Shown here in pieces: positions 12,438 through 26,168 of a DNA stretch of 32,000 nt (its first letter is position 1; the number at the start of each line of letters is the position of its first letter). The DNA comes from Candidatus Nitrosopelagicus brevis (GTDB lineage Archaea > Thermoproteota > Nitrososphaeria > Nitrososphaerales > Nitrosopumilaceae), in contig NZ_CP007026.1 of assembly GCF_000812185.1 (NCBI RefSeq), positions 525,222-557,221 on the forward strand, given 5' to 3'. The translations under genes and the position numbers were made by a program. The notes below the pieces were generated by a model. That model searched no databases. It had not been told where the DNA came from and saw only the letters and a program-made list of their open reading frames with translations.

Positions 12438-12468
12438 TTTTGGCACCAGTTTATGAAATTAGCATTAG

Positions 12469-12476
12469 TTTTATAC
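12469..12476 (+). promoter_or_regulatory. TATA box TTTTATAC, 28 nt upstream of ATG 12497
   Basis: The same octamer occurs at 25558 and on the minus strand at 25461-25454. Confidence 0.55.
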
Positions 12477-12496: not shown

Positions 12497-13438
12497 ATGA
12501 AAAAATTAGGAATTGGATTACTTGCACTTTCAATATCTCTTGCAATGACTGGTATCGGATTTGATAATGCATTTGCTGAAGAAATTAAGATTGAAAATGG
12601 TCGCGGTTCATCCCAGCCGGGATGCGAGGTAACAAACCTATGTTTTGTACCTGCAATTGCAACTGCAAACGTTGGTGATAAAATAATATTTTTGAATGGA
12701 GATGATGCTCCACATACTTCAACTAGCGGTAATCCTACAAGTGGACCTGATGGTATCTGGGATAGTGGATTACAGCAACCTGGAGTAGATTTTGTATTTA
12801 TGGCAACTACCCCTGGAACTTTTGATTATTTCTGTATGGTCCATCCGTGGATGGCTGGACAACTGGTAATCTTAGCTGCTGATTCAGAAACCTCTAATGA
12901 CATAATTTCTAACTATGGAACCTCAGTTGATCAAACTGAATCAATGATTTATGGTGATACCACACCTGAAATATCTAAAAAAGATCCAGGAGCTGTGAAT
13001 GAAGTATTTGCAAACATCGTTACAAGTGATGCTTCAAAAGGCTCTCCTCTAACAATTGAAGTCGAATTTATGGAATCAGATGGATTTGTTATCAATCATG
13101 TAAATTATGACATAACTGTATCTCAAAATGGTGAAATAATACTTGCTGACAATGGTGCACACCGTCACTTGTTCAAATATCCTGTACACACTACTGATGA
13201 ATTAGAATTTGATCCTAAAGAACATCCTGTTGACATTGATGTAACATTTCAAGGAATTGGTCACTTTGTTGGTTCATTAACTGAAGAATCAATACTAGGA
13301 GTTTACGGTCCTATTGGAACGACATCTACTTTTCAAGTAGTTCCTGAGTTTGGTGTAATTGTATCACTAGTACTAGTAATTTCAATTACTGCAGTTATTG
13401 GATTCTCTGCTAAAACAAGATTAATACAAAAATTCTAG
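12497..13438 (+). CDS. Secreted blue-copper (cupredoxin/plastocyanin-like) protein with an extra domain and a PEFG-CTERM anchor
   Basis: Signal peptide MKKLGIGLLALSISLAMTG. Type-1 Cu ligand pattern: PHTSTSG ... YFCMVHPWMAGQLVI (H...C-x2-H-x2-M). The C-terminus VPEFGVIVSLVLVISITAVIGFSAKTR matches the PEFG-CTERM sorting signal as I recall it. Confidence 0.85.
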   Translation: MKKLGIGLLALSISLAMTGIGFDNAFAEEIKIENGRGSSQPGCEVTNLCFVPAIATANVGDKIIFLNGDDAPHTSTSGNPTSGPDGIWDSGLQQPGVDFVFMATTPGTFDYFCMVHPWMAGQLVILAADSETSNDIISNYGTSVDQTESMIYGDTTPEISKKDPGAVNEVFANIVTSDASKGSPLTIEVEFMESDGFVINHVNYDITVSQNGEIILADNGAHRHLFKYPVHTTDELEFDPKEHPVDIDVTFQGIGHFVGSLTEESILGVYGPIGTTSTFQVVPEFGVIVSLVLVISITAVIGFSAKTRLIQKF

Positions 13439-18848: not shown

Positions 18849-20165
18849 ATGCAAGAATTTGCAAATCCTCCTTCACTAAGAAATGCAATATTTGACCTAC
18901 TTTCTTCTGTCGAACTTGCAACTGATGAAAATGTAAAATTATTAGATTACACAATACAGTTATTCAAAAGCAATGGATTGTTCAGTGATTATTATGGATA
19001 CCATAATGTTGATCATGAACTTGAAGTCACTTACGTCACTTTGGTTGCTGGAAAACATTCTCTTGAAGAAAATTATATCTCTAAAACTGATTTGAATTAT
19101 CTTTTTGCATCTGCACTTTTGCATGATTTTGATCCTGATAAATCGATAGACAAACCTCATGAAAAAAATGTCATACAGTTTATCTCCAAAGATGCAACCA
19201 TACAAAAACTCCTTGCTGATGCAAACCTGGATCAAAATCTAATCTGTGCAATAATATCTAGAACCGTCTATCCTTGGGCTGGAGATATAATCACTAACAC
19301 AGAAAAATTAATCCAAAATTACTTTTCAAACTCTGAAATAAAAGATGATAATGAAACACAAAAACACTTTAGAGAACTTGGACATTTTCTATCCATTTCT
19401 GACCGAATTGGTGGTTATTCTCTAGGTGATTTCCAAAAGGCAATGGAGATGGCAAAGATGAATGCACATTCATCAAGTTGGCATCCTGCCTTTATTGTCA
19501 GGCGTTCGGTTGTCTTTTTTGAAGATATGCTAAATAATGAACCTGATATGTGTCAACGAGTTTTAAACGGACTTCCAAAACATATGAGGAAAAATTTCTT
19601 AGATAACATCGTTGGATTTATGAAACTTCGTCAAGAAGAAATTCAAATTTACAATCAATTTGTTTATGATGGTCTGCCATTAGTTCCATGCATACAGAAA
19701 AGTACACTTTCTGACGATGTTTTGGATGAACTTTTATCAATTTATCGGGAATTACCAAAACCACTGCAATTTACCCGTGATGATTTCATTGAATCAATAC
19801 GTGATCCTGAAACAATTCTTAACATGCTTCGTATTGGAGATTCTAACGGACAAATTATTGGATTTGCAAAAGGTGGTCCATTAGAAAAATATAATTTTGA
19901 TCTAGAGTTTGAAGATCGAAATCGCGGGAAAAATAATACCGTCTTTCTTGAGCCTGTCGCAATAAAAAACGGCTATTGGGGTTTTCATGGAGGCAGAGAG
20001 TTAAGACAGTTATTCATGATGCAGGTGCAATCAAAAGGTTACAAATTCATGACTAGTTTTGCAATGCGTGATGTGATTGATGAAAGAAAAGAAAATGACA
20101 AAAATGTTGTTTTTGTGAAAAAGTTTAATCCTGAACGATGGGATTATTTCAGAGTAACTCTATAG
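18849..20165 (+). CDS. HD-domain phosphohydrolase-like N-terminal region fused to a GNAT-like C-terminal domain
   Basis: YHNVDHELEV ... ASALLHDFDPDK gives the H...HD...D metal motif. The C-terminal ~150 aa show a GNAT-like strand/helix pattern: IIGFAKGG ... VFLEPVAIKNGYWGFHGGRELRQLFMMQVQSKGYKFM. Confidence 0.6.
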   Translation: MQEFANPPSLRNAIFDLLSSVELATDENVKLLDYTIQLFKSNGLFSDYYGYHNVDHELEVTYVTLVAGKHSLEENYISKTDLNYLFASALLHDFDPDKSIDKPHEKNVIQFISKDATIQKLLADANLDQNLICAIISRTVYPWAGDIITNTEKLIQNYFSNSEIKDDNETQKHFRELGHFLSISDRIGGYSLGDFQKAMEMAKMNAHSSSWHPAFIVRRSVVFFEDMLNNEPDMCQRVLNGLPKHMRKNFLDNIVGFMKLRQEEIQIYNQFVYDGLPLVPCIQKSTLSDDVLDELLSIYRELPKPLQFTRDDFIESIRDPETILNMLRIGDSNGQIIGFAKGGPLEKYNFDLEFEDRNRGKNNTVFLEPVAIKNGYWGFHGGRELRQLFMMQVQSKGYKFMTSFAMRDVIDERKENDKNVVFVKKFNPERWDYFRVTL

Positions 20166-20172
20166 ATGTCTA

Positions 20173-20400
20173 GTGAACGAACTAGAGACATTAATTCAAA
20201 ATGGTGTTAAAAATCTTGAAGATGGTAATTTTGAAGATGCTTTGAGCTTTTTTGAACAAGCATTACTTCTAAAACCTGACGATCCTGATTTATGGAATAA
20301 CAAGGGTATTGCATTAAGGAGTCTAGGTAGATACGATGAGGCATCTTACTGTTATAACAAATCTCTTGAATTGGACCCTAGGGATCGTGCTTCTTCTTAA
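20173..20400 (+). CDS. Small TPR-repeat protein (75 aa)
   Basis: GTG start 7 nt after the previous stop. Two TPR-like units (GNFEDALSFFEQALLLKPDDPDLWNNKGIALRSLGRYDEASYCYNKSLELDP). Confidence 0.65.
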   Translation: MNELETLIQNGVKNLEDGNFEDALSFFEQALLLKPDDPDLWNNKGIALRSLGRYDEASYCYNKSLELDPRDRASS

Positions 20401-20636: not shown

Positions 20637-21236
20637 CTAATATCCGCCTTTTACAAACTCATATTCTTTTTTGTTAAAGTCGAATTGCGTTACGAGTACT
20701 TCGCCCATTGCATCAACTGCTGCCTGAACCACATCTGGTTGAGTTGAGAAGAATCCTCTGAATTTTCCAATTCCAAACTCTTCTGCTATTAAACCGATTG
20801 GTCCATCTGGACCACGTGTTACAACTGCCCATACTGAAGCAAGCGGTGTTCCAACACAGCTGATAACCACACAACTATCTGGCATCTCTTGAGCCAAGTG
20901 TGGATTATTGAAGTTTCCAATTACCCACGTTCTTGGGAGTTTCTTCATCAATTTCAGATATCTGTCCTTGACAAACTCGTACCTTTTGTCAGTCTCAAAT
21001 GACGCTAGTAATGGGGATGTGTGTTTTGATGCATAGTTCTCAATCATTATGCTTAGTGCAAAAAGATCTGAACGGTCTGCTTTGAAGTTTAGATATCCAC
21101 CGTCTTGAAAGTCCTGAAAGTTCCAGTTCACAAAAATTTCGTCGCCCTGTTCGGCAATTTCTTTTTTCTCTGGGAACTTTTCAAAGACTGTATCAATCAA
21201 ACTGTCGTTCGTTAAACCCATGTTTAACGTTAACAT
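20637..21236 (-). CDS. Unknown-function protein, possibly a DICT-like sensory domain
   Basis: 199 aa, or 194 aa if ATG 21221 is used; that start has TTAAATAT 28 nt upstream. The C-terminal pattern SVWAVVTRGPDGPIGLIAEEFGIGKFRGFFSTQPDVVQAAVDAM resembles my recollection of DICT (PF10069) C-termini. Sits immediately downstream of the B12-binding regulator gene. Confidence 0.75.
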   Translation of the reverse strand: MLTLNMGLTNDSLIDTVFEKFPEKKEIAEQGDEIFVNWNFQDFQDGGYLNFKADRSDLFALSIMIENYASKHTSPLLASFETDKRYEFVKDRYLKLMKKLPRTWVIGNFNNPHLAQEMPDSCVVISCVGTPLASVWAVVTRGPDGPIGLIAEEFGIGKFRGFFSTQPDVVQAAVDAMGEVLVTQFDFNKKEYEFVKGGY

Positions 21237-21251
21237 ATAGAATATTTAAGC

Positions 21252-21280
21252 TAGTGGAAACTAGGTATTATAGTGGTAAT
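21252..21280. promoter_or_regulatory. Two TAGTGG motifs (TAGTGGAAA at 21252, TAGTGGTAAT at 21271), 19 bp apart, upstream of the 199-aa gene
   Basis: Same motif family as the clusters at 22148-22243 and 25464-25554. Confidence 0.45.
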
Positions 21281-22131
21281 TATTTCTTTTTTATAATTCG
21301 AGGAATTTGTTCCAGGGCATGAGCATCAGTGATGAGTTTTCCATCAAATTTAAAATTCGTTTTCTCCGTAAATGCCAGACCTCCTATGAAAATTGGAAGT
21401 TTCTTATATGCTTCATGAATTTTTTTAACCATTCTTTGACCAGATCTGATATTGTCCTCTAACGTTATTGATACAATTAGAGCATCTGGTTTTGCAGTTT
21501 TTATAAATTCAATTAGTGATTCTGCAGGGGTTGATGGTGATAGATTAAATGTTGTAAATCCCTTTGAGACTAAAAATGAATCTAGTACGTTACAACCTAA
21601 ATTGTGATCCTCTCCAACTGGAGTGGTTAGTACAATTTTTCCTTTATCCTTCTTTGATTTTCTATTTTCATCTGCAATTACCTTAACAAGACTATGAGCA
21701 ATGTTGCTGGCAACGTGTTCTGTTGCAATTGATAGCTTACCTTCTGACCACAAATATCCAATTTCGGCCATAACTGGTGTCATAATTCTTTCATAGAACT
21801 GGTCTAGTGTATTGCTTGAGACAAATGCTGTGTAAATCTCCATTGTATCTTTTAGACTTCCTTCTGTAAGTGATGAAAATAATTTGGTTCTTAATTGCTC
21901 AATTAATTTTTCACGTTTTTCTCTGTCCTTTGGTGTATTTTGTAGTAAAAATGAGTTAATTTTTGCATCCTCTCTAAATTCTGCAGGGATATCATCTCTG
22001 GTCACAGATGTAGATTCACCTAGATATTTGATGGTTTCCTGTCTGGATGTCTTTCTTTCTTTATCCCACGTACTTTTTACTAAATATAGATAATCGACTC
22101 CTTTTACCTTCTTTTTTCGAAGATATACCAT
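21280..22131 (-). CDS. CarH-like adenosylcobalamin-binding (photoreceptor-type) regulator with a non-MerR N-terminal domain
   Basis: W128-x9-E138-H139 (YLWSEGKLSIATEHVAS). E174-D-H176-N-L-G179 (ExHxxG). G179-x41-S221-I-T223. T223-x26-G250-G251. The N-terminal 45 aa are basic and beta-rich (VYLRKKKVKGVDYLYLVKSTWDKERKTSRQETIKYLGE), with no HTH recognised. Confidence 0.8.
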   Translation of the reverse strand: MVYLRKKKVKGVDYLYLVKSTWDKERKTSRQETIKYLGESTSVTRDDIPAEFREDAKINSFLLQNTPKDREKREKLIEQLRTKLFSSLTEGSLKDTMEIYTAFVSSNTLDQFYERIMTPVMAEIGYLWSEGKLSIATEHVASNIAHSLVKVIADENRKSKKDKGKIVLTTPVGEDHNLGCNVLDSFLVSKGFTTFNLSPSTPAESLIEFIKTAKPDALIVSITLEDNIRSGQRMVKKIHEAYKKLPIFIGGLAFTEKTNFKFDGKLITDAHALEQIPRIIKKK

Positions 22132-22147
22132 TAGCCGTATTACTGAA

Positions 22148-22243
22148 TAGTGCCTAATAAGTATATCTAGTGCTAACTAGTACATTTCGTGCCTAAAAAC
22201 ACAAAAAATTCTGAATATTATGGATTTTAAAGATTACCACTAT
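22148..22243. promoter_or_regulatory. Cluster of four TAGTG[C/G](C)TAA motifs in the divergent intergenic region
   Basis: TAGTGCCTAA at 22148-22157, TAGTGCTAA at 22168-22176 and TCGTGCCTAA at 22187-22196 are direct repeats spaced 20 and 19 bp. ATAGTGGTAA lies on the minus strand at 22243-22234. The first two flank the AT-rich TATA candidate at 22155-22168. Confidence 0.5.
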
Positions 22244-22282: not shown

Positions 22283-22555
22283 TTGGCTCGCGAAAAAAGA
22301 ACAAGAATTCAATTGTATTTTGATATAATTTCAGCAATAATCCAAGAAGAAGATATCTCGCCAACACGAATTCAGTTCAAATGTAATACCTCCTATGATA
22401 AATTAATGAAATATCTGGAAGAAATGCAAAAACGTGAAATCATAGCAAGAAATGGCTCAATCGGTGTTACCGATAAAGGAAAAAAATTTCATACGGATTA
22501 TTCAAAAATTAACGATCTAATATCTGAAATTAGTAAAACGATTACGGAAGAGTAA
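22283..22555 (+). CDS. Small winged-helix DNA-binding protein (HTH_45-like)
   Basis: 90 aa. RIQLYFDIISAI...SPTRIQFKCNTSYDKLMKYLEEMQKREIIARNG...VTDKGKKF matches the small archaeal wHTH pattern. TTG 22283 is the first codon after an in-frame TAG, and the first in-frame ATG (codon 42) would remove the N-terminal RIQLYFDIISAI segment and truncate the domain. Confidence 0.65.
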   Translation: MAREKRTRIQLYFDIISAIIQEEDISPTRIQFKCNTSYDKLMKYLEEMQKREIIARNGSIGVTDKGKKFHTDYSKINDLISEISKTITEE

Positions 22556-23090
22556 ATAATTCAGTACCTTTCTCTTTTGTCTGAAATATTATAGCTTTGT
22601 GAGATTCTAGTAATTGATTCAAAAATCTATCTCTTAGTTCTTCGTTAATCTGTTTGACCTCAAACGAACAAACAAAGTTACCATTAATTTTTTCAAAACC
22701 ATCATCAACACATTGTTCAATTTCTGCCATTCTATCTGTCTTTTCTTCAGAATCAAAATCAAAGTAGTGTGTTGAAACAACTCTAATTTTAGCTTCTTCA
22801 GGTAATCCTTCCACTTTGTCTAAAATCATATCTGAATAATCTTCAAATTTTTCAGGAATCTCTACTATGTGTAAAAGCTCATTACTCTCTCCATCTTCAA
22901 TTCCAAATTGCTTCATTTCATCTAGGATTTTTTGACGATTTTGTGTTGTATAGAAGCAGTGTTGACCCTTGTCTAGTCCTTTTTTAATAAATCCATATTC
23001 TGTTTGCTTTTTTTCTTCATTTCCATCGTGAAAAAGCACTACATGTGTGCGCTCTAAACTTTCAAGAAAGTCCTCAGATTGCGAGCTCAT
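22542..23090 (-). CDS. MEDS-like (KaiC/RecA-derived sensory) domain protein
   Basis: 182 aa. THVVLFHDGNEEKKQTEYGFIKKGLDKGQHCFYTT resembles the MEDS N-terminal signature (H.v.fY...ee......fi..Gl..ge.c.y). Its 3' end overlaps the wHTH gene convergently by 14 nt. Confidence 0.6.
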   Translation of the reverse strand: MSSQSEDFLESLERTHVVLFHDGNEEKKQTEYGFIKKGLDKGQHCFYTTQNRQKILDEMKQFGIEDGESNELLHIVEIPEKFEDYSDMILDKVEGLPEEAKIRVVSTHYFDFDSEEKTDRMAEIEQCVDDGFEKINGNFVCSFEVKQINEELRDRFLNQLLESHKAIIFQTKEKGTELFTLP

Positions 23091-23124: not shown

Positions 23125-23138
23125 CTCACCTAGGTGAG
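23125..23138. promoter_or_regulatory. Perfect 14-bp palindrome CTCACCTAGGTGAG next to the MEDS-gene TATA box
   Basis: Self-complementary as read. Located at the BRE-proximal side of the TATA box. AGGTGAGT recurs at 25475-25482. Confidence 0.45.
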
Positions 23139-23393: not shown

Positions 23394-24863
23394 TTATGAG
23401 TAATCTGTATTGTAAACTGGTCTAGCACCGCTTGGTACTTCTGCACCAGCAGATTCCTTGACTGATTCTCCTCTTGCCTGGTAAACTCTGACTTTGTGAA
23501 ATACATTGTGGGATGAAAATATTGCCAATCCGGCAATTCCAGCTCCTATGAAATTCCTTAATGTCACATCGATACTTGGTTCTGCACCTATTACTGACAT
23601 TTGGAATACAACGTAAAAATTGTCAAATAACCAAAATGCCAAAGTTACCCATGATAGCAATCCTCCAATAAGATAGCCTAGCCTTGCTTTTTGTCTTACA
23701 AATAAAATTGCAAAAATAATTGCAACATACCAAATGAATGATCCAAATAACCATGATATTTCCCATACATCTGTTCTATCATCCATCCAGTAGTATGTGG
23801 AACCAATTATTGCCATGGCACAAAGTGAAATCAAAAGTAATTTTTGATTAACCTTGTAAGATGTTTTTTCTTCAGGTGTTTTTTCAATTGGTTTGAAAGC
23901 TACTTGTTCTTCTCTTGCCTCTTTGATTGCTTCAGTCATATGTTTGAGATTTACTGGAACAAATTCTTCTACTGATTTGTCTTTTACGTATGAGTCGTGA
24001 ACTAAACTGTCTACTAGTGGCCTTGCAAGTGATGCCTTTACCGGAGTTACCAAATCAATCCAGTATGATGATAATCTTGGCGTTAAAAATGGAATTTGTA
24101 TGATATTCAAATTTCTATTAATTATTGATGAATACAGTCTCATCATTTGTTCGTATGTCATTTTATCAGGTCCACCAATCTCAAATATTTTTCCGGCAGT
24201 TGATGGATTTTTCATAGCACCCACTAGATAATCTACAACATTTTCGACTGCAATTGGCTGCGTTGTAGATTTTACCCATCTTGGGCAAACCATTAGTGGT
24301 AATCTTTCAACAAGATATCGGAGCATTGCGTATGAACCACCCTCTGCACCCACAATTACTGATGCTCTCAATTCTGTAACTGGAATGGTTCCTGATGCTA
24401 AAATTTTGCCAACTTCGTGCCTACTTCTCATGTGTTTTGATAATTCTAAACTTTCGTTTACCAATCCTCCAAGATAGATTATTCTTTTTACTCCTGCGTT
24501 TTCAGCAGCTTTTAGAAAATTTTGTGCTTGAACTTTTTCTCTATCTGCAAATTGTTCCCATTCTTTTTTGGAACCTTCCATAGAGTGTAGAAGGTAAAAT
24601 GCAGTTTCTACTCCCTTGAATGCATTAGATAATGTGTCCAACTCTAACGCATCTGCTGCTACAAATTTTACATTATCTGAATTTTGATGTAGTGTTCTTG
24701 ACATCGCGGTAACTTTGTACCCTGTTTTGGATAATCTCTCTGTTAGTTTTTTTCCAATGAATCCTGTGGCGCCTGTAACTAGAATTGAATAATCATTGAT
24801 TTTGGCACTTTCTTTTAATGCTGCCATTTTCTCTAAATTACTTGAACTTGCTTTCTGACTCAT
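23394..24863 (-). CDS. NmrA/atypical-SDR-like NAD(P)-binding domain fused to a C-terminal four-TM membrane domain
   Basis: ILVTGATGFIGKKL (Rossmann GxxGxxG) within a ~300-aa epimerase/NmrA-like region. Then four hydrophobic helices follow (LLLISLCAMAIIGSTYYW, WLFGSFIWYVAIIFAILFV, LIGGLLSWVTLAFWLF, FIGAGIAGLAIFSS). Confidence 0.85.
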   Translation of the reverse strand: MSQKASSSNLEKMAALKESAKINDYSILVTGATGFIGKKLTERLSKTGYKVTAMSRTLHQNSDNVKFVAADALELDTLSNAFKGVETAFYLLHSMEGSKKEWEQFADREKVQAQNFLKAAENAGVKRIIYLGGLVNESLELSKHMRSRHEVGKILASGTIPVTELRASVIVGAEGGSYAMLRYLVERLPLMVCPRWVKSTTQPIAVENVVDYLVGAMKNPSTAGKIFEIGGPDKMTYEQMMRLYSSIINRNLNIIQIPFLTPRLSSYWIDLVTPVKASLARPLVDSLVHDSYVKDKSVEEFVPVNLKHMTEAIKEAREEQVAFKPIEKTPEEKTSYKVNQKLLLISLCAMAIIGSTYYWMDDRTDVWEISWLFGSFIWYVAIIFAILFVRQKARLGYLIGGLLSWVTLAFWLFDNFYVVFQMSVIGAEPSIDVTLRNFIGAGIAGLAIFSSHNVFHKVRVYQARGESVKESAGAEVPSGARPVYNTDYS

Positions 24864-24865
24864 TT

Positions 24866-25237
24866 TTACTCCTTGTCTAGTTTACGAAGTTCTTTAAGAT
24901 CTACAATCTCAATATCTTTGCTCAGAGTTACCAGAGATGATAATTTTGGTTTGGCATTTTTACCCATTTTAAGAACTAGTTTATTTTTATGTAATATCTC
25001 AAGTGTCACATTCTCTTTTTTTAGAACTTTTCCTATATGTTTGGCCTCAGTTAATTGTTTCAATAGGCTCATTTTTCCAGGAATTTTTGTAGGAAGGTGC
25101 TTGATGTTTAATCTTCTAATATCTCCTTTTGAGGAAAATTCTATAGCGGTACCATCTCCATCACTGATGGTTAAGTCTCCGCTACGGAGGTAAAGTAAAA
25201 AATTGGCAGGAAGGTCGCTTTTCATTTTCGTATCCAT
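24866..25237 (-). CDS. Hypothetical protein (123 aa)
   Basis: K/E/L-rich, protein-like composition. 2-nt gap to the downstream gene. The overlapping plus-strand ORF 24873..25193 is S/L/F/R-rich, as expected for an antisense frame. Confidence 0.65.
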   Translation of the reverse strand: MDTKMKSDLPANFLLYLRSGDLTISDGDGTAIEFSSKGDIRRLNIKHLPTKIPGKMSLLKQLTEAKHIGKVLKKENVTLEILHKNKLVLKMGKNAKPKLSSLVTLSKDIEIVDLKELRKLDKE

Positions 25238-25243
25238 TCCTGA

Positions 25244-25432
25244 TTAGGTTTTTGTTGTGATAGTCAAGCCACCTGTTAGTACAACTGTTCCTGTTGAAAC
25301 TTTCTTGCCATTGCGGTCAACCATTCCACTAAGTTCTAATTTGTCGAACTTGTATGAAATGGCTGCATGCTTTGCAGTTAGTTTATCAAAAACTTCTGCC
25401 AGGAGACTTGCCCATTCTTGTTCTTCTGTCAT
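25244..25432 (-). CDS. Hypothetical small protein (62 aa)
   Basis: ATG 25432 (MTEEQEWASLL) has TTTTATAC exactly 29 nt upstream. The longer 25474 start would place the TATA box and a TAGTG motif inside the CDS. Confidence 0.55.
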   Translation of the reverse strand: MTEEQEWASLLAEVFDKLTAKHAAISYKFDKLELSGMVDRNGKKVSTGTVVLTGGLTITTKT

Positions 25433-25453
25433 ACAAATCCTAATTACGTCATA

Positions 25454-25461
25454 GTATAAAA
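25454..25461 (-). promoter_or_regulatory. TATA box (TTTTATAC on minus strand), 29 nt upstream of ATG 25432
   Basis: Identical octamer to the opposing promoter at 25558-25565. Confidence 0.55.
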
Positions 25462-25463
25462 CG

Positions 25464-25554
25464 CTAGTGACCAAAGGTGAGTCTAGTGCCTAAATGTTAT
25501 CACCATATTACAAATAGTGGTAAATATTGGCACTAGAAGCACCCTAGTGCATAA
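25464..25554. promoter_or_regulatory. Cluster of five TAGTG-family motifs between two divergent TTTTATAC promoters
   Basis: CTAGTGACCAA at 25464-25474. CTAGTGCCTAA at 25483-25493. ATAGTGGTAAA at 25514-25524. TTGGCACTAG at 25527-25536 (reverse orientation). CTAGTGCATAA at 25544-25554. TCTAGTGCC (25482-25490) and GGCACTAGA (25529-25537) form a perfect 9-bp inverted repeat with a 38-bp spacer. Confidence 0.5.
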
Positions 25555-25586: not shown

Positions 25587-26168
25587 ATGAGCACTACACA
25601 ATCACTTCCAAGTAAGATCGCATTGATGAAAGGTGGAATCGGGGCAGGCCTAATGGGTGGCTTCGCATTATTTTCATCATTCTTTGCAATCGATCAAATG
25701 TTAGATATTCCGGCAGGAACATTCTACAAAACCATCGGTGTTACAATGGGCGTGGATGAAACTTCAGCAATTGCAGTGGGCTTTATAGCTCACATGGGAG
25801 TTGCAGCATTGATTGGGGCCATGTACTTTTTGGCTTCAAACATTTGGAGATTCTTTAGATTGGTAACAGTTCCAAAAGCAATAATCACTGGTGTTTGGAC
25901 TGGGCTAATTGTTTTCACATTAGCATTTTTACCGATTCACATGTTCGTAATGACTCCAATGATGGAGGTAGAATTAATTATTACCGACGTATCAAAATTT
26001 GACTTGGAACAACAAAAGGCATTAGCAACCCTGTTGTATGAAAGCGACAAAATTTACATCAATGCTTTGATTCTCCACATAATCTATGGAGCAATCGCAG
26101 GATTCGTTGGAGGTTGCATAATGCATGAAGACTACAAAGGAGTGAAAAGGATTGGCGGATTCTGGTAA
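25587..26168 (+). CDS. Hypothetical multi-pass membrane protein (193 aa)
   Basis: Four to five hydrophobic helices (GIGAGLMGGFALFSSFFAI, AIAVGFIAHMGVAALIGAMYFL, IITGVWTGLIVFTLAFLPIHMFV, ILHIIYGAIAGFVGGCIM). Confidence 0.75.
   Translation: MSTTQSLPSKIALMKGGIGAGLMGGFALFSSFFAIDQMLDIPAGTFYKTIGVTMGVDETSAIAVGFIAHMGVAALIGAMYFLASNIWRFFRLVTVPKAIITGVWTGLIVFTLAFLPIHMFVMTPMMEVELIITDVSKFDLEQQKALATLLYESDKIYINALILHIIYGAIAGFVGGCIMHEDYKGVKRIGGFW

Follow-up and report, generated by a model that had tools for sequence, protein, structure and literature searches.

A candidate B12-dependent light-sensing repressor with a transposase-related N-terminal domain in ammonia-oxidising archaea

Introduction

CarH photoreceptors are defined by two groups of residues in their cobalamin-binding domain (CBD): a Wx9EH motif in the helical bundle and the pattern D/ExHx2G/P-x41-SxT/V-x22-27-GG in the Rossmann domain (PMC9304148). 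They act at direct-repeat operators that overlap the promoters of their own and adjacent genes (PMC8156234). A four-element light-responsive signature, GxxW, EH, GxxH and GxxxP (SignatureFinder), has been validated experimentally by Yu et al., and the output domains published for CBDs of the light type are helix-turn-helix (HTH), DGC, BBD, GAF, MEDS, DICT, ANTAR and PDE domains (PMC11796333). Here we analyse a 32,000-nucleotide stretch of Candidatus Nitrosopelagicus brevis (contig NZ_CP007026.1, positions 525,222 to 557,221 of the forward strand; 34% G+C; hereafter the window) which encodes a 283-residue B12-binding protein, referred to below as the regulator, that joins a CBD of this kind to an N-terminal domain that is not of the MerR type. 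Coordinates are those of the window and are collected in Table 1.

A first-pass annotation of the sequence had proposed that this protein carries the complete CarH-type signature and lacks the MerR domain. We computed its domain composition, the conservation of its motifs, the structural class of its B12 module, the homology of its N-terminus to IS1634 transposases and the conserved repeats in its promoter. Together these point to an adenosylcobalamin (AdoCbl)-dependent, light-released archaeal repressor with a new DNA-binding domain as the best reading. We put the probability that it is a one-component AdoCbl-dependent light sensor acting as a transcription factor in ammonia-oxidising archaea (AOA) at roughly 60%.

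Results

The CarH motif set and its conservation

The regulator gene is an ATG-initiated open reading frame (ORF), stop codon included in its coordinates, with the motif spacing W128-x9-E138-H139 and E174-x-H176-x-x-G179-x41-S221-x-T223-x26-G250-G251. Its Rossmann domain presents G173-E174-x-H176, with H176 in the place of the lower axial histidine, followed by S198xxxP202, S221xT223 and G250G251. A script check of the codons (W128 at 21750-21748, H139 at 21717-21715, H176 at 21606-21604) agreed with the first-pass annotation on the ORF and on every motif residue listed there, and the order and spacing that it had given for CarH/LitR (x9, x41, x26) are correct and fit the published motif (PMC9304148). 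Pfam recognises B12-binding_2 at residues 81-151 (37.2 bits, cutoff 23) and B12-binding at residues 164-255 (42.4 bits, cutoff 32.1), with no above-threshold match in the first 75 residues. None of the motif residues varies among 17 orthologs that are 63-92% identical; since both B12 domains also score above threshold, the motif set is not a product of chance. W128, E138, H139, H176, P202, G250 and G251 remain invariant in a 38-sequence alignment reaching down to 21% identity.

The closest relatives of the regulator, in AH-558 single-cell genomes, are 98% identical to it. Homologs number 1535 at E <= 1e-3, the best 120 covering 78-100% of the query, and their source names include 'cobalamin-dependent protein', 'MtbC1' and 'MerR family light-induced regulator'. 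When proteins carrying the N-terminal domain were clustered at 50% identity, 36 of the 40 full-length representatives kept GxxW, EH, GExH, SxT and GG. Two members (P0147 and P0148) keep the N-terminal domain along with the B12 Rossmann motif and have lost Wx9EH, which recalls the B12-independent CarA and class II LitR proteins.

A scan of GTDB, with one genome per species and a 10-sequence alignment (the 38-sequence alignment is too diverse for a locus scan), found relatives in 282 species genomes. The best 80 all belong to Nitrosopumilaceae, from the genera Nitrosopelagicus, Nitrosopumilus, Nitrosarchaeum, Nitrosotenuis and Nitrosomaritimum, and the regulator gene is near-universal in this family. 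One cluster of the protein family is annotated from Candidatus Nitrosocaldus.

The B12 module belongs to the photoreceptor class

Searching the PDB with the whole protein returned MetH, photocobilins and CarH alike, all at 1e-13 to 1e-10. These searches left the class undecided; the half that discriminates is the helical bundle. Residues 76-160 alone matched Thermus thermophilus CarH (TtCarH) entries at 2e-4 to 6e-4, CtMerR (8JBS) at 8e-3 and photocobilins at 0.017, while neither MetH nor any corrinoid protein was matched in the PDB. The bundle aligns without gaps, GYLW128SEGKLSIATE138H139 lying on GEAW131HRGEIGVAEE141H142 of TtCarH, so that the three proposed cap residues fall on those of CarH as the first-pass annotation had expected. 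Pairwise alignment with the native TtCarH encoded on pTT27 (25% identity over 153 aa) again pairs the three cap residues and places G173ExH176 on G174ERH177, with H176 on H177, and the regulator retains G191 and P202 in the positions of the interface residue G192 and of P203.

The structural comparison gives the same picture. An AlphaFold model built with the 17 orthologs (predicted local distance difference test score, pLDDT, 79) has helices at residues 67-157 and a Rossmann fold at 164-282; the 50 best Foldseek matches to it in the PDB are all chains of B12 photoreceptors, and, normalised to the TtCarH CBD, its TM-score comes to about 0.8. A closer kinship with enzymatic B12 domains, the outcome against which the first-pass annotation had set its proposal, is thus contradicted both by the bundle, which finds photoreceptors only, and by the Foldseek matches. 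Three of the SignatureFinder elements are exact (G125xxW128, E138H139 and G173xxH176) and the fourth is S198xxxP202, a conservative G-to-S replacement; throughout the family position 198 holds S, A or G, and P202 does not vary. Among the NCBIfam models CarH (NF052513) ranks first, covering the CBD only, followed by MtgC at 56 bits, both far under their cutoffs. Because of this equivalog score and the absence of a MerR domain, the regulator is placed outside CarH/LitR proper.

The N-terminal domain is related to IS1634 transposase N-termini

Neither MerR nor any other HTH family of Pfam or NCBIfam matches the N-terminus, and two AlphaFold runs, one for the complete protein and one for residues 1-72 with a 35-sequence alignment, predict a beta-sheet there instead, in line with the proposal that the MerR domain is absent. 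In both runs three long antiparallel strands (residues 2-9, 12-23 and 28-39; pLDDT about 90-93) are followed by a conserved DIPxEYR segment and then a short helix. Residues 1-40 contain 11 K+R against 5 D+E, with an isoelectric point of 9.85. The basic, beta-rich segment described in the first-pass annotation is therefore present; the helical linker of about 50 aa that was said to follow it is not a single element, being composed of the linker 41-66 and the first helix of the bundle. Helix 67-90 is helix 1 of the CarH-type four-helix bundle, an assignment based on the TtCarH alignment, which begins at residue 78. In the linker, D47, P49, R53, I58 and N59 are invariant in the 17 orthologs, and P49 also in the 38-sequence alignment. 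This linker is specific to members fused to a CBD, and its DIPxEYR motif is missing from the DPANN and HNH members described below.

When 1.84 billion representative proteins were searched with a profile of the domain, 263 clusters were retrieved. Most are CBD fusions of about 280-300 aa; the same domain also stands at the head of HNH endonucleases (P0224, P0228), of an AbiEii nucleotidyltransferase (P0220) from a Diapherotrites metagenome-assembled genome, and of DPANN archaeal proteins of about 170 aa. With one member, P0248, tblastn finds annotated transposases of the IS1634 family, the match lying at their N-termini (3e-4, 51% identity over 41 aa), and hhalign pairs the domain alignment with the N-terminus of a Mesorhizobium IS1634 transposase at a probability of 97.4% over 40 columns. 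The DDE domain (DDE_Tnp_1) of that transposase begins at residue 193, and no Pfam family covers the N-terminus. Both sides share the pattern hhhR.k..G..YhYLVeS.....k..Q.tIK.LG, and on this evidence from sequence comparison the N-terminal sheet is homologous to IS1634 transposase N-termini. The kinship is confined to the N-terminal 40 residues; Pfam finds no DDE catalytic domain in the regulator. A below-cutoff Pfam match of the N-terminus to MrcB_N (E-value 0.012) found no other support and was dropped.

The domain is absent from the published fusion partners of light-type CBDs (PMC11796333), and the new output architecture foreseen in the first-pass annotation is borne out to that extent. Its basic charge, its fusion partners, its place in transposases and the conserved promoter element described next suggest that it probably binds DNA.

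A conserved direct repeat marks the regulator promoter

The region upstream of the regulator gene contains three repeats and a TATA-like box, ATATACTT, at 22166-22159; the ATG is at 22131, and the third repeat lies between the box and the ATG. The TAGTG fragments singled out in the first-pass annotation as possible binding sites represent, in reverse complement, the CACTA core of these repeats. The window has 5 occurrences of GCACTAG where 1.06 are expected, and two promoter intergenic regions hold 4 of the 5. TTAGGCAC is present in 3 copies, two upstream of the regulator gene and one upstream of p76, the first gene of the p76-p123a-SDR operon. CACTA-N13-16-CAYTA occurs 5 times against 0.40 expected, and three of these occurrences are the promoters of the regulator gene, of p76 and of p199, which encodes a DICT-like protein. 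The p199 and p76 promoters have one layout: repeat, N9, repeat, TATA-like box and about 20-27 nt to the ATG. The regulator promoter shares it, with its third repeat as an addition.

The arrangement is conserved well beyond this genome. Directly upstream of the regulator gene, TTAGCACTAG-N9-10-TTAG(G)CAYTAG is found in about 75 of 82 related loci. The 48 distinct promoters from outside Nitrosopelagicus have the consensus TTaGCACTAG-N9-TTagCATTAgTTAaATA at -54 +/-2 from the ATG, and their second repeat abuts the TATA-like box at the position expected for the B recognition element (BRE). Counted over 80 loci, GCACTAG reaches a density of 7.4 per kb within 150 bp upstream of the gene and, over 859 kb of flanks, 0.30 per kb elsewhere.

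A position weight matrix (PWM) of 29 nt, trained on those 48 promoters only, was used to scan the window. It scored 27.9 bits at 12440-12468(+), 19.5 at p199, 15.0 at the regulator gene itself, 14.1 at 25508-25536(+) and 11.6 at p76, compared with a maximum of 13.5 bits over 20 shuffles of the window. Beyond the regulator promoter, the matrix thus recovers four promoter sites in the window, three of them above the shuffle maximum. Orthologs that are at least 72% identical keep the top-scoring site at -57 (27.7, 24.8 and 11.4 bits), where random 130-bp windows reach 6.3 bits at most; it is absent in paralogs of 41% identity or less. Next to the site at 25508-25536(+), there is a further inverted GCACTAG copy at 25544-25550(-).

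In five loci (L031, L040, L043, L053, L075) a small zinc-ribbon ORF of 65-78 aa, and not the repeat, directly precedes the regulator gene. Operator-like sites upstream of such ORFs in 8-9 loci suggest that zinc-ribbon ORF and regulator gene are co-transcribed.

Neighbouring genes and candidate targets

Table 1. Features of the regulator locus in the window, with strand and basis of the assignment.
Feature	Position	Strand	Basis or detail
Regulator gene	21280..22131	-	ORF; Pfam and NCBIfam matches; 1535 homologs; relatives in 282 GTDB species genomes
Residues 1-40, basic three-stranded beta-sheet, presumed DNA-binding domain	22012..22131	-	AlphaFold, isoelectric point, profile search, hhalign
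Residues 41-66, conserved linker, DIPxEYR motif and short helix 56-65	21934..22011	-	Invariant residues in orthologs
Residues 67-157, four-helix bundle (B12-binding_2), G125xxW128 and E138H139, predicted adenosyl cap	21661..21933	-	Pfam, PDB bundle search, AlphaFold, Foldseek, TtCarH alignment
Residues 164-283, Rossmann B12-binding domain	21283..21642	-	Motif positions, Pfam, TtCarH alignment
Regulator promoter and putative operator	22148..22196	-	Repeats TTAGGCACGA 22196-22187, TTAGCACTAG 22176-22167, TTAGGCACTA 22157-22148
p199 promoter	21242..21279	-	Repeats TTACCACTA 21279-21271, TTTCCACTAG 21260-21251; TATA TTAAATAT 21249-21242
p199, divergent DICT-domain protein	20637..21236	-	DICT the only recurrent Pfam family
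p76-operon promoter	25454..25493	-	Repeats TTAGGCACTAG 25493-25483, TTGGTCACTAG 25474-25464; TATA TTTTATAC 25461-25454
p76-p123a-SDR operon	23394..25474	-	p76 25244-25432/25474; p123a 24866-25237; SDR 23394-24863
Site facing divergent 193-aa membrane-protein gene (25587-26168)	25508..25536	+	PWM 14.1 bits
Top-scoring window site, upstream of gene 12497-13438	12440..12476	+	TTGGCACCAG-N9-TTAGCATTAG, then TATA TTTTATAC 12469-12476
Cupredoxin-like protein gene, candidate regulon member	12497..13438	+	313 aa, secreted, PEFG-type C-terminal anchor
MEDS-domain protein	22542..23090	-	Pfam MEDS 34.1 bits, cutoff 29.8; 9/84 loci
Winged-helix (HTH_45 / Sso10a-like) protein, 90 aa, divergent from regulator gene	22283..22555	+	10/84 loci

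Gene linkage was counted over 84 related loci, between which the immediate neighbours of the regulator gene vary. The most persistent partner is the SDR gene, linked in 50 loci and through rearrangements, followed by p123a (30 loci) and p76 (29 loci). The operon p76-p123a-SDR and the regulator gene of Nitrosopumilus are divergently oriented around a common intergenic region with inverted copies of the repeat. The SDR product is a 489-aa NDUFA9-like protein with a C-terminal membrane domain whose nearest solved relatives are the NDUFA9 subunits of complex I; family searches with p76 and p123a returned no recognisable family. On the Thermus thermophilus HB8 plasmid pTT27 (83.8-91.9 kb; L086/L087) carH-ldrP is followed by an NDUFA9-family SDR gene, with further SDR genes, a flavin reductase gene and a YceI gene near the cluster. 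The SDR of the window is 24% identical over 293 aa to this 'complex I NDUFA9 subunit family protein', a parallel which is at most suggestive.

The p199 gene is linked in 20 of the 84 loci, and 9 of the 16 members of its family match DICT (PF10069; best E-value 8.7e-4). Homolog lengths and a spacing of 20-25 nt from the TATA box favour ATG 21221 over the mechanical ATG 21236 as its probable true start and, for p76, probably ATG 25432 over the mechanical TTG 25474; with these starts both mRNAs would be leaderless or nearly so. The cupredoxin-like protein has a weak Copper-bind match (E-value 0.013) and, in its sequence, a C-x2-H-x2-M pattern of the copper-site type.

DICT and MEDS, both among the published fusion partners of light-type CBDs (PMC11796333), are encoded beside the regulator as separate proteins. 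The winged-helix and MEDS genes stand between regulator gene and SDR operon only in close Nitrosopelagicus relatives, and we saw no operator-like site upstream of the MEDS gene. We had considered a fixed operon of winged-helix, MEDS and DICT genes with the sensor; this was rejected on account of that restricted occurrence and of the rearranged neighbourhood elsewhere, and we treat the winged-helix and MEDS genes as genomic context.

Two further candidates come from the related loci. A gene for a 453-aa FAD amine oxidase of the CrtI/HpnE superfamily is convergent to the regulator gene in 44 of the 84 loci, and in 21 of those 44 its promoter contains a site of at least 14 bits. It follows the regulator gene by about 20 bp, in opposite orientation (loci L021-L084, for example L034:6848-8206), and the window itself holds no homolog. 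A TFB (TFIIB) paralog has upstream sites in 7 loci (L036:9230-10141 and six others), where it shares with a divergent 120-aa gene an intergenic region with at least two GCACTAG copies; it may form a second regulatory tier.

Downstream of the regulator gene, at 18849-20400, the conserved syntenic neighbours in Nitrosopelagicus encode a 438-aa protein (faint PDEase/HD and GNAT hints, no confident family) and a TPR protein of 75 aa. Between the SDR and MEDS genes, at 23125-23138, there is a perfect palindrome, CTCACCTAGGTGAG, with a terminator-like score on both strands. An Rfam search of the window returned no family and hence no cobalamin riboswitch.

Discussion

A model for the regulator

Cofactor binding, photochemistry, oligomerisation, binding of the repeats by the regulator and the sign of regulation are features that we infer from the comparisons above. 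In the dark, the C-terminal CarH-type module would bind AdoCbl, with H176 as the lower axial ligand and W128, E138 and H139 capping the adenosyl group, and the B12-loaded protein would form an oligomer. Its basic N-terminal sheets would then bind the direct repeats, approximately TTAGCACTAG and spaced by 19-20 bp. As the repeats abut or flank the TATA box, binding would block TBP/TFB or RNA polymerase; it is this overlap with the core promoter that argues for repression. Light would cleave the Co-C bond, the oligomer would loosen and the promoters would be freed. The predicted targets in the window are the regulator gene itself, the DICT-like gene, the p76-p123a-SDR operon, the divergent membrane-protein gene and the cupredoxin-like gene, to which the CrtI/HpnE-superfamily flavoenzyme and the TFB paralog may be added in other Nitrosopumilaceae.

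Several observations weigh against this reading. In the B12 module, the score of 63.4 bits against the CarH equivalog NF052513 compares with a cutoff of 400 bits, and the Gly of GxxxP is Ser. H132 of TtCarH, which is the upper ligand in its bis-His light state, is replaced by S129; the R176-D201 salt bridge of the TtCarH dimer corresponds to D175/S200, and G160 is aligned to S159 in a poorly aligned loop. For the N-terminal domain, fold searches gave no significant solved or viral neighbour, and our literature search found no documented DNA binding by the IS1634 N-terminus. At the promoter, the repeats of Nitrosopelagicus-type sequences flank the TATA box in place of preceding it, and the PWM trained on Nitrosopumilus gives 14 bits or more in only 2 of the 28 distinct promoters of this kind. 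The assignment of the repeats to the regulator follows the logic of autoregulation, and another factor could bind them. Lastly, the family also occurs in lineages without known light exposure.

The absence of the bis-His histidine and of the R176-D201 pair suggests that the oligomer and the light-state chemistry may differ from those of TtCarH. CarH homologues are themselves known to vary in their oligomeric transitions (PMC9304148), and CtMerR (Arg) and the photocobilins (Gln/Tyr) also lack the histidine and are still light-responsive (PMC11796333).

Alternative explanations

One alternative is a sensor of cobalamin status or redox state. Such a protein would respond to how much B12 is available, to its form (AdoCbl or hydroxocobalamin (OHCbl), in the manner of AerR-type proteins) or to oxidative stress, and would bind DNA with no physiological role for light. 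The missing bis-His histidine and the altered dimer interface are compatible with it, as are the many habitats of the AOA hosts (among them Nitrosocaldus and Nitrosopumilaceae of sediments and lakes) and the weak AerR match in the PDB. Against it stand the Wx9EH cap, which is tied in CarH to AdoCbl-specific light function, CarA proteins that lost it having become B12-independent (PMC9304148), and the invariance of this cap over deep divergence in the present family. Moreover, the nearest structures are all those of proven photoreceptors, including CtMerR and the photocobilins, which respond to light without that histidine. Nor are there recognisable genes for B12 biosynthesis or uptake among the candidate targets; AOA make their own B12, which renders its supply a less obvious signal. 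We consider a status sensor unlikely. A light sensor that does not itself bind DNA is somewhat less likely still. It would act through a partner, either like the AerR/PpaA antirepressors or by way of the DICT, MEDS or winged-helix proteins, the TTAGCACTAG repeats being bound by another factor and the N-terminal sheet serving protein or RNA contacts. The divergent winged-helix gene, the adjacent DICT and MEDS genes and the lack of a solved DNA-binding fold matching the N-terminal domain all fit this arrangement. However, the winged-helix and MEDS genes occur in 9-10 of the 84 loci whereas upstream of the regulator gene the repeats are near-universal. In addition, the N-terminal domain is strongly basic and sits on HNH nucleases and IS1634 DDE transposases in positions typical of DNA-recognition modules.

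The database label 'methanogenic corrinoid protein MtbC1' implies a different function, that of a methyl carrier in a methyltransferase system, and the NCBIfam models MtgC, pyl_corrinoid and MtbC do match at 35-56 bits (cutoffs 215-370 bits), the MtbC/MtmC/MtaC/MtgC class of models giving 33-56 bits against 215-420 bits. Since these scores lie far under the family cutoffs, the bundle matches no corrinoid protein of the PDB and there are no methyltransferase genes in the locus or in the 84 related loci, we reject this function as very improbable; it would also leave the nucleic-acid-type N-terminal domain and the conserved promoter repeat without a role. The homology of the N-terminus to IS1634 transposases could likewise mark the gene as a remnant or passenger of a mobile element with no regulatory role. 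With the DDE domain absent, one copy per examined locus, strong sequence conservation and conserved synteny across Nitrosopumilaceae, this reading is effectively refuted, and we give it hardly any credence.

Significance

Ammonia-oxidising archaea are among the most abundant cells of the ocean and major producers of cobalamin. Thaumarchaeota synthesise this cofactor, light inhibits their ammonia oxidation, and light inhibition of AOA shapes where nitrification happens. The literature that we searched describes neither a light sensor nor a light regulon for these organisms. Nothing relevant emerged from searches for a link between CarH, LitR or B12-binding photoreceptors and Thaumarchaeota or Nitrosopumilus, in agreement with the statement of the first-pass annotation that the class is uncharacterised in this lineage. 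The sensor module itself is of a known kind; what is new relative to the literature found is the host lineage, the output domain, which is neither in Pfam nor among the published partners, and the archaeal promoter logic.

The fuller proposal, a lineage-wide AdoCbl light-sensing repressor with an IS1634-derived DNA-binding domain and a small light-on regulon, has in our judgement about even odds. That regulon would bring together an NDUFA9-like membrane SDR, a CrtI/HpnE-like flavoenzyme, DICT and other small proteins, together with a blue-copper protein and a TFB paralog. If true, the proposal would mark the first transcriptional photoreceptor system to be described for Thaumarchaeota and give B12 photoreceptors a new class of DNA-binding output. 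The family supplies a concrete sensor, a candidate operator and candidate targets, all open to testing in vitro and in cultures of Nitrosopumilus. To B12 photobiology it would add an archaeal branch with a compact, putative DNA-binding output of about 40 aa that is not an HTH and may serve optogenetic design; for the evolution of regulators, it would illustrate how a sensor can recruit the DNA-recognition domain of a transposase.

Comparison with known systems

The two halves of the regulator have separate counterparts. Its N-terminal pattern is that of IS1634 transposases, from which the regulator differs in having no DDE domain and in being a conserved syntenic chromosomal gene. The AerR/PpaA antirepressors (PDB 7TE2) are B12-binding transcription regulators built on the same two-domain module; their match to the regulator is weak (0.0038), and they act via CrtJ/PpsR without a DNA-binding domain of their own. 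The photocobilins (SsPCob/AcPCob, PDB 8J2W/8J2X/8J2Y) provide the best structural match (Foldseek 1.8e-12; sequence 1.4e-12) and have the same CBD with Wx9EH, whereas their output is a C-terminal biliverdin-binding globin and/or GGDEF domain and they contain no DNA-binding domain. CtMerR, of SignatureFinder 'group 2' (PDB 8JBS/8JBT), is also among the structural neighbours of the model. It shares GxxW, EH and GxxH, and both proteins lack the bis-His histidine; CtMerR has a MerR HTH, and in the regulator the fourth element is SxxxP.

CarH/LitR class I (TtCarH, PDB 5C8A/5C8D/5C8E; CarH of Myxococcus and Bacillus megaterium) has the same two-part CBD and the same one-component architecture with an N-terminal DNA-binding module, presumed in the case of the regulator. 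The DNA-binding module is a MerR winged helix in CarH and an IS1634-related three-stranded beta-sheet here. The operators of CarH are contiguous 11-bp repeats, whereas those proposed here are repeats of about 10 bp with a period of 19-20 bp in an archaeal host with TATA/BRE promoters. H132, the R176-D201 pair and the Gly of GxxxP are not kept in the regulator. On the other hand, the regulator gene has direct repeats at its own and adjacent promoters, as in CarH, the regulator being their presumed occupant, and an NDUFA9-family SDR is linked in both systems. The regulator very probably functions like CarH.

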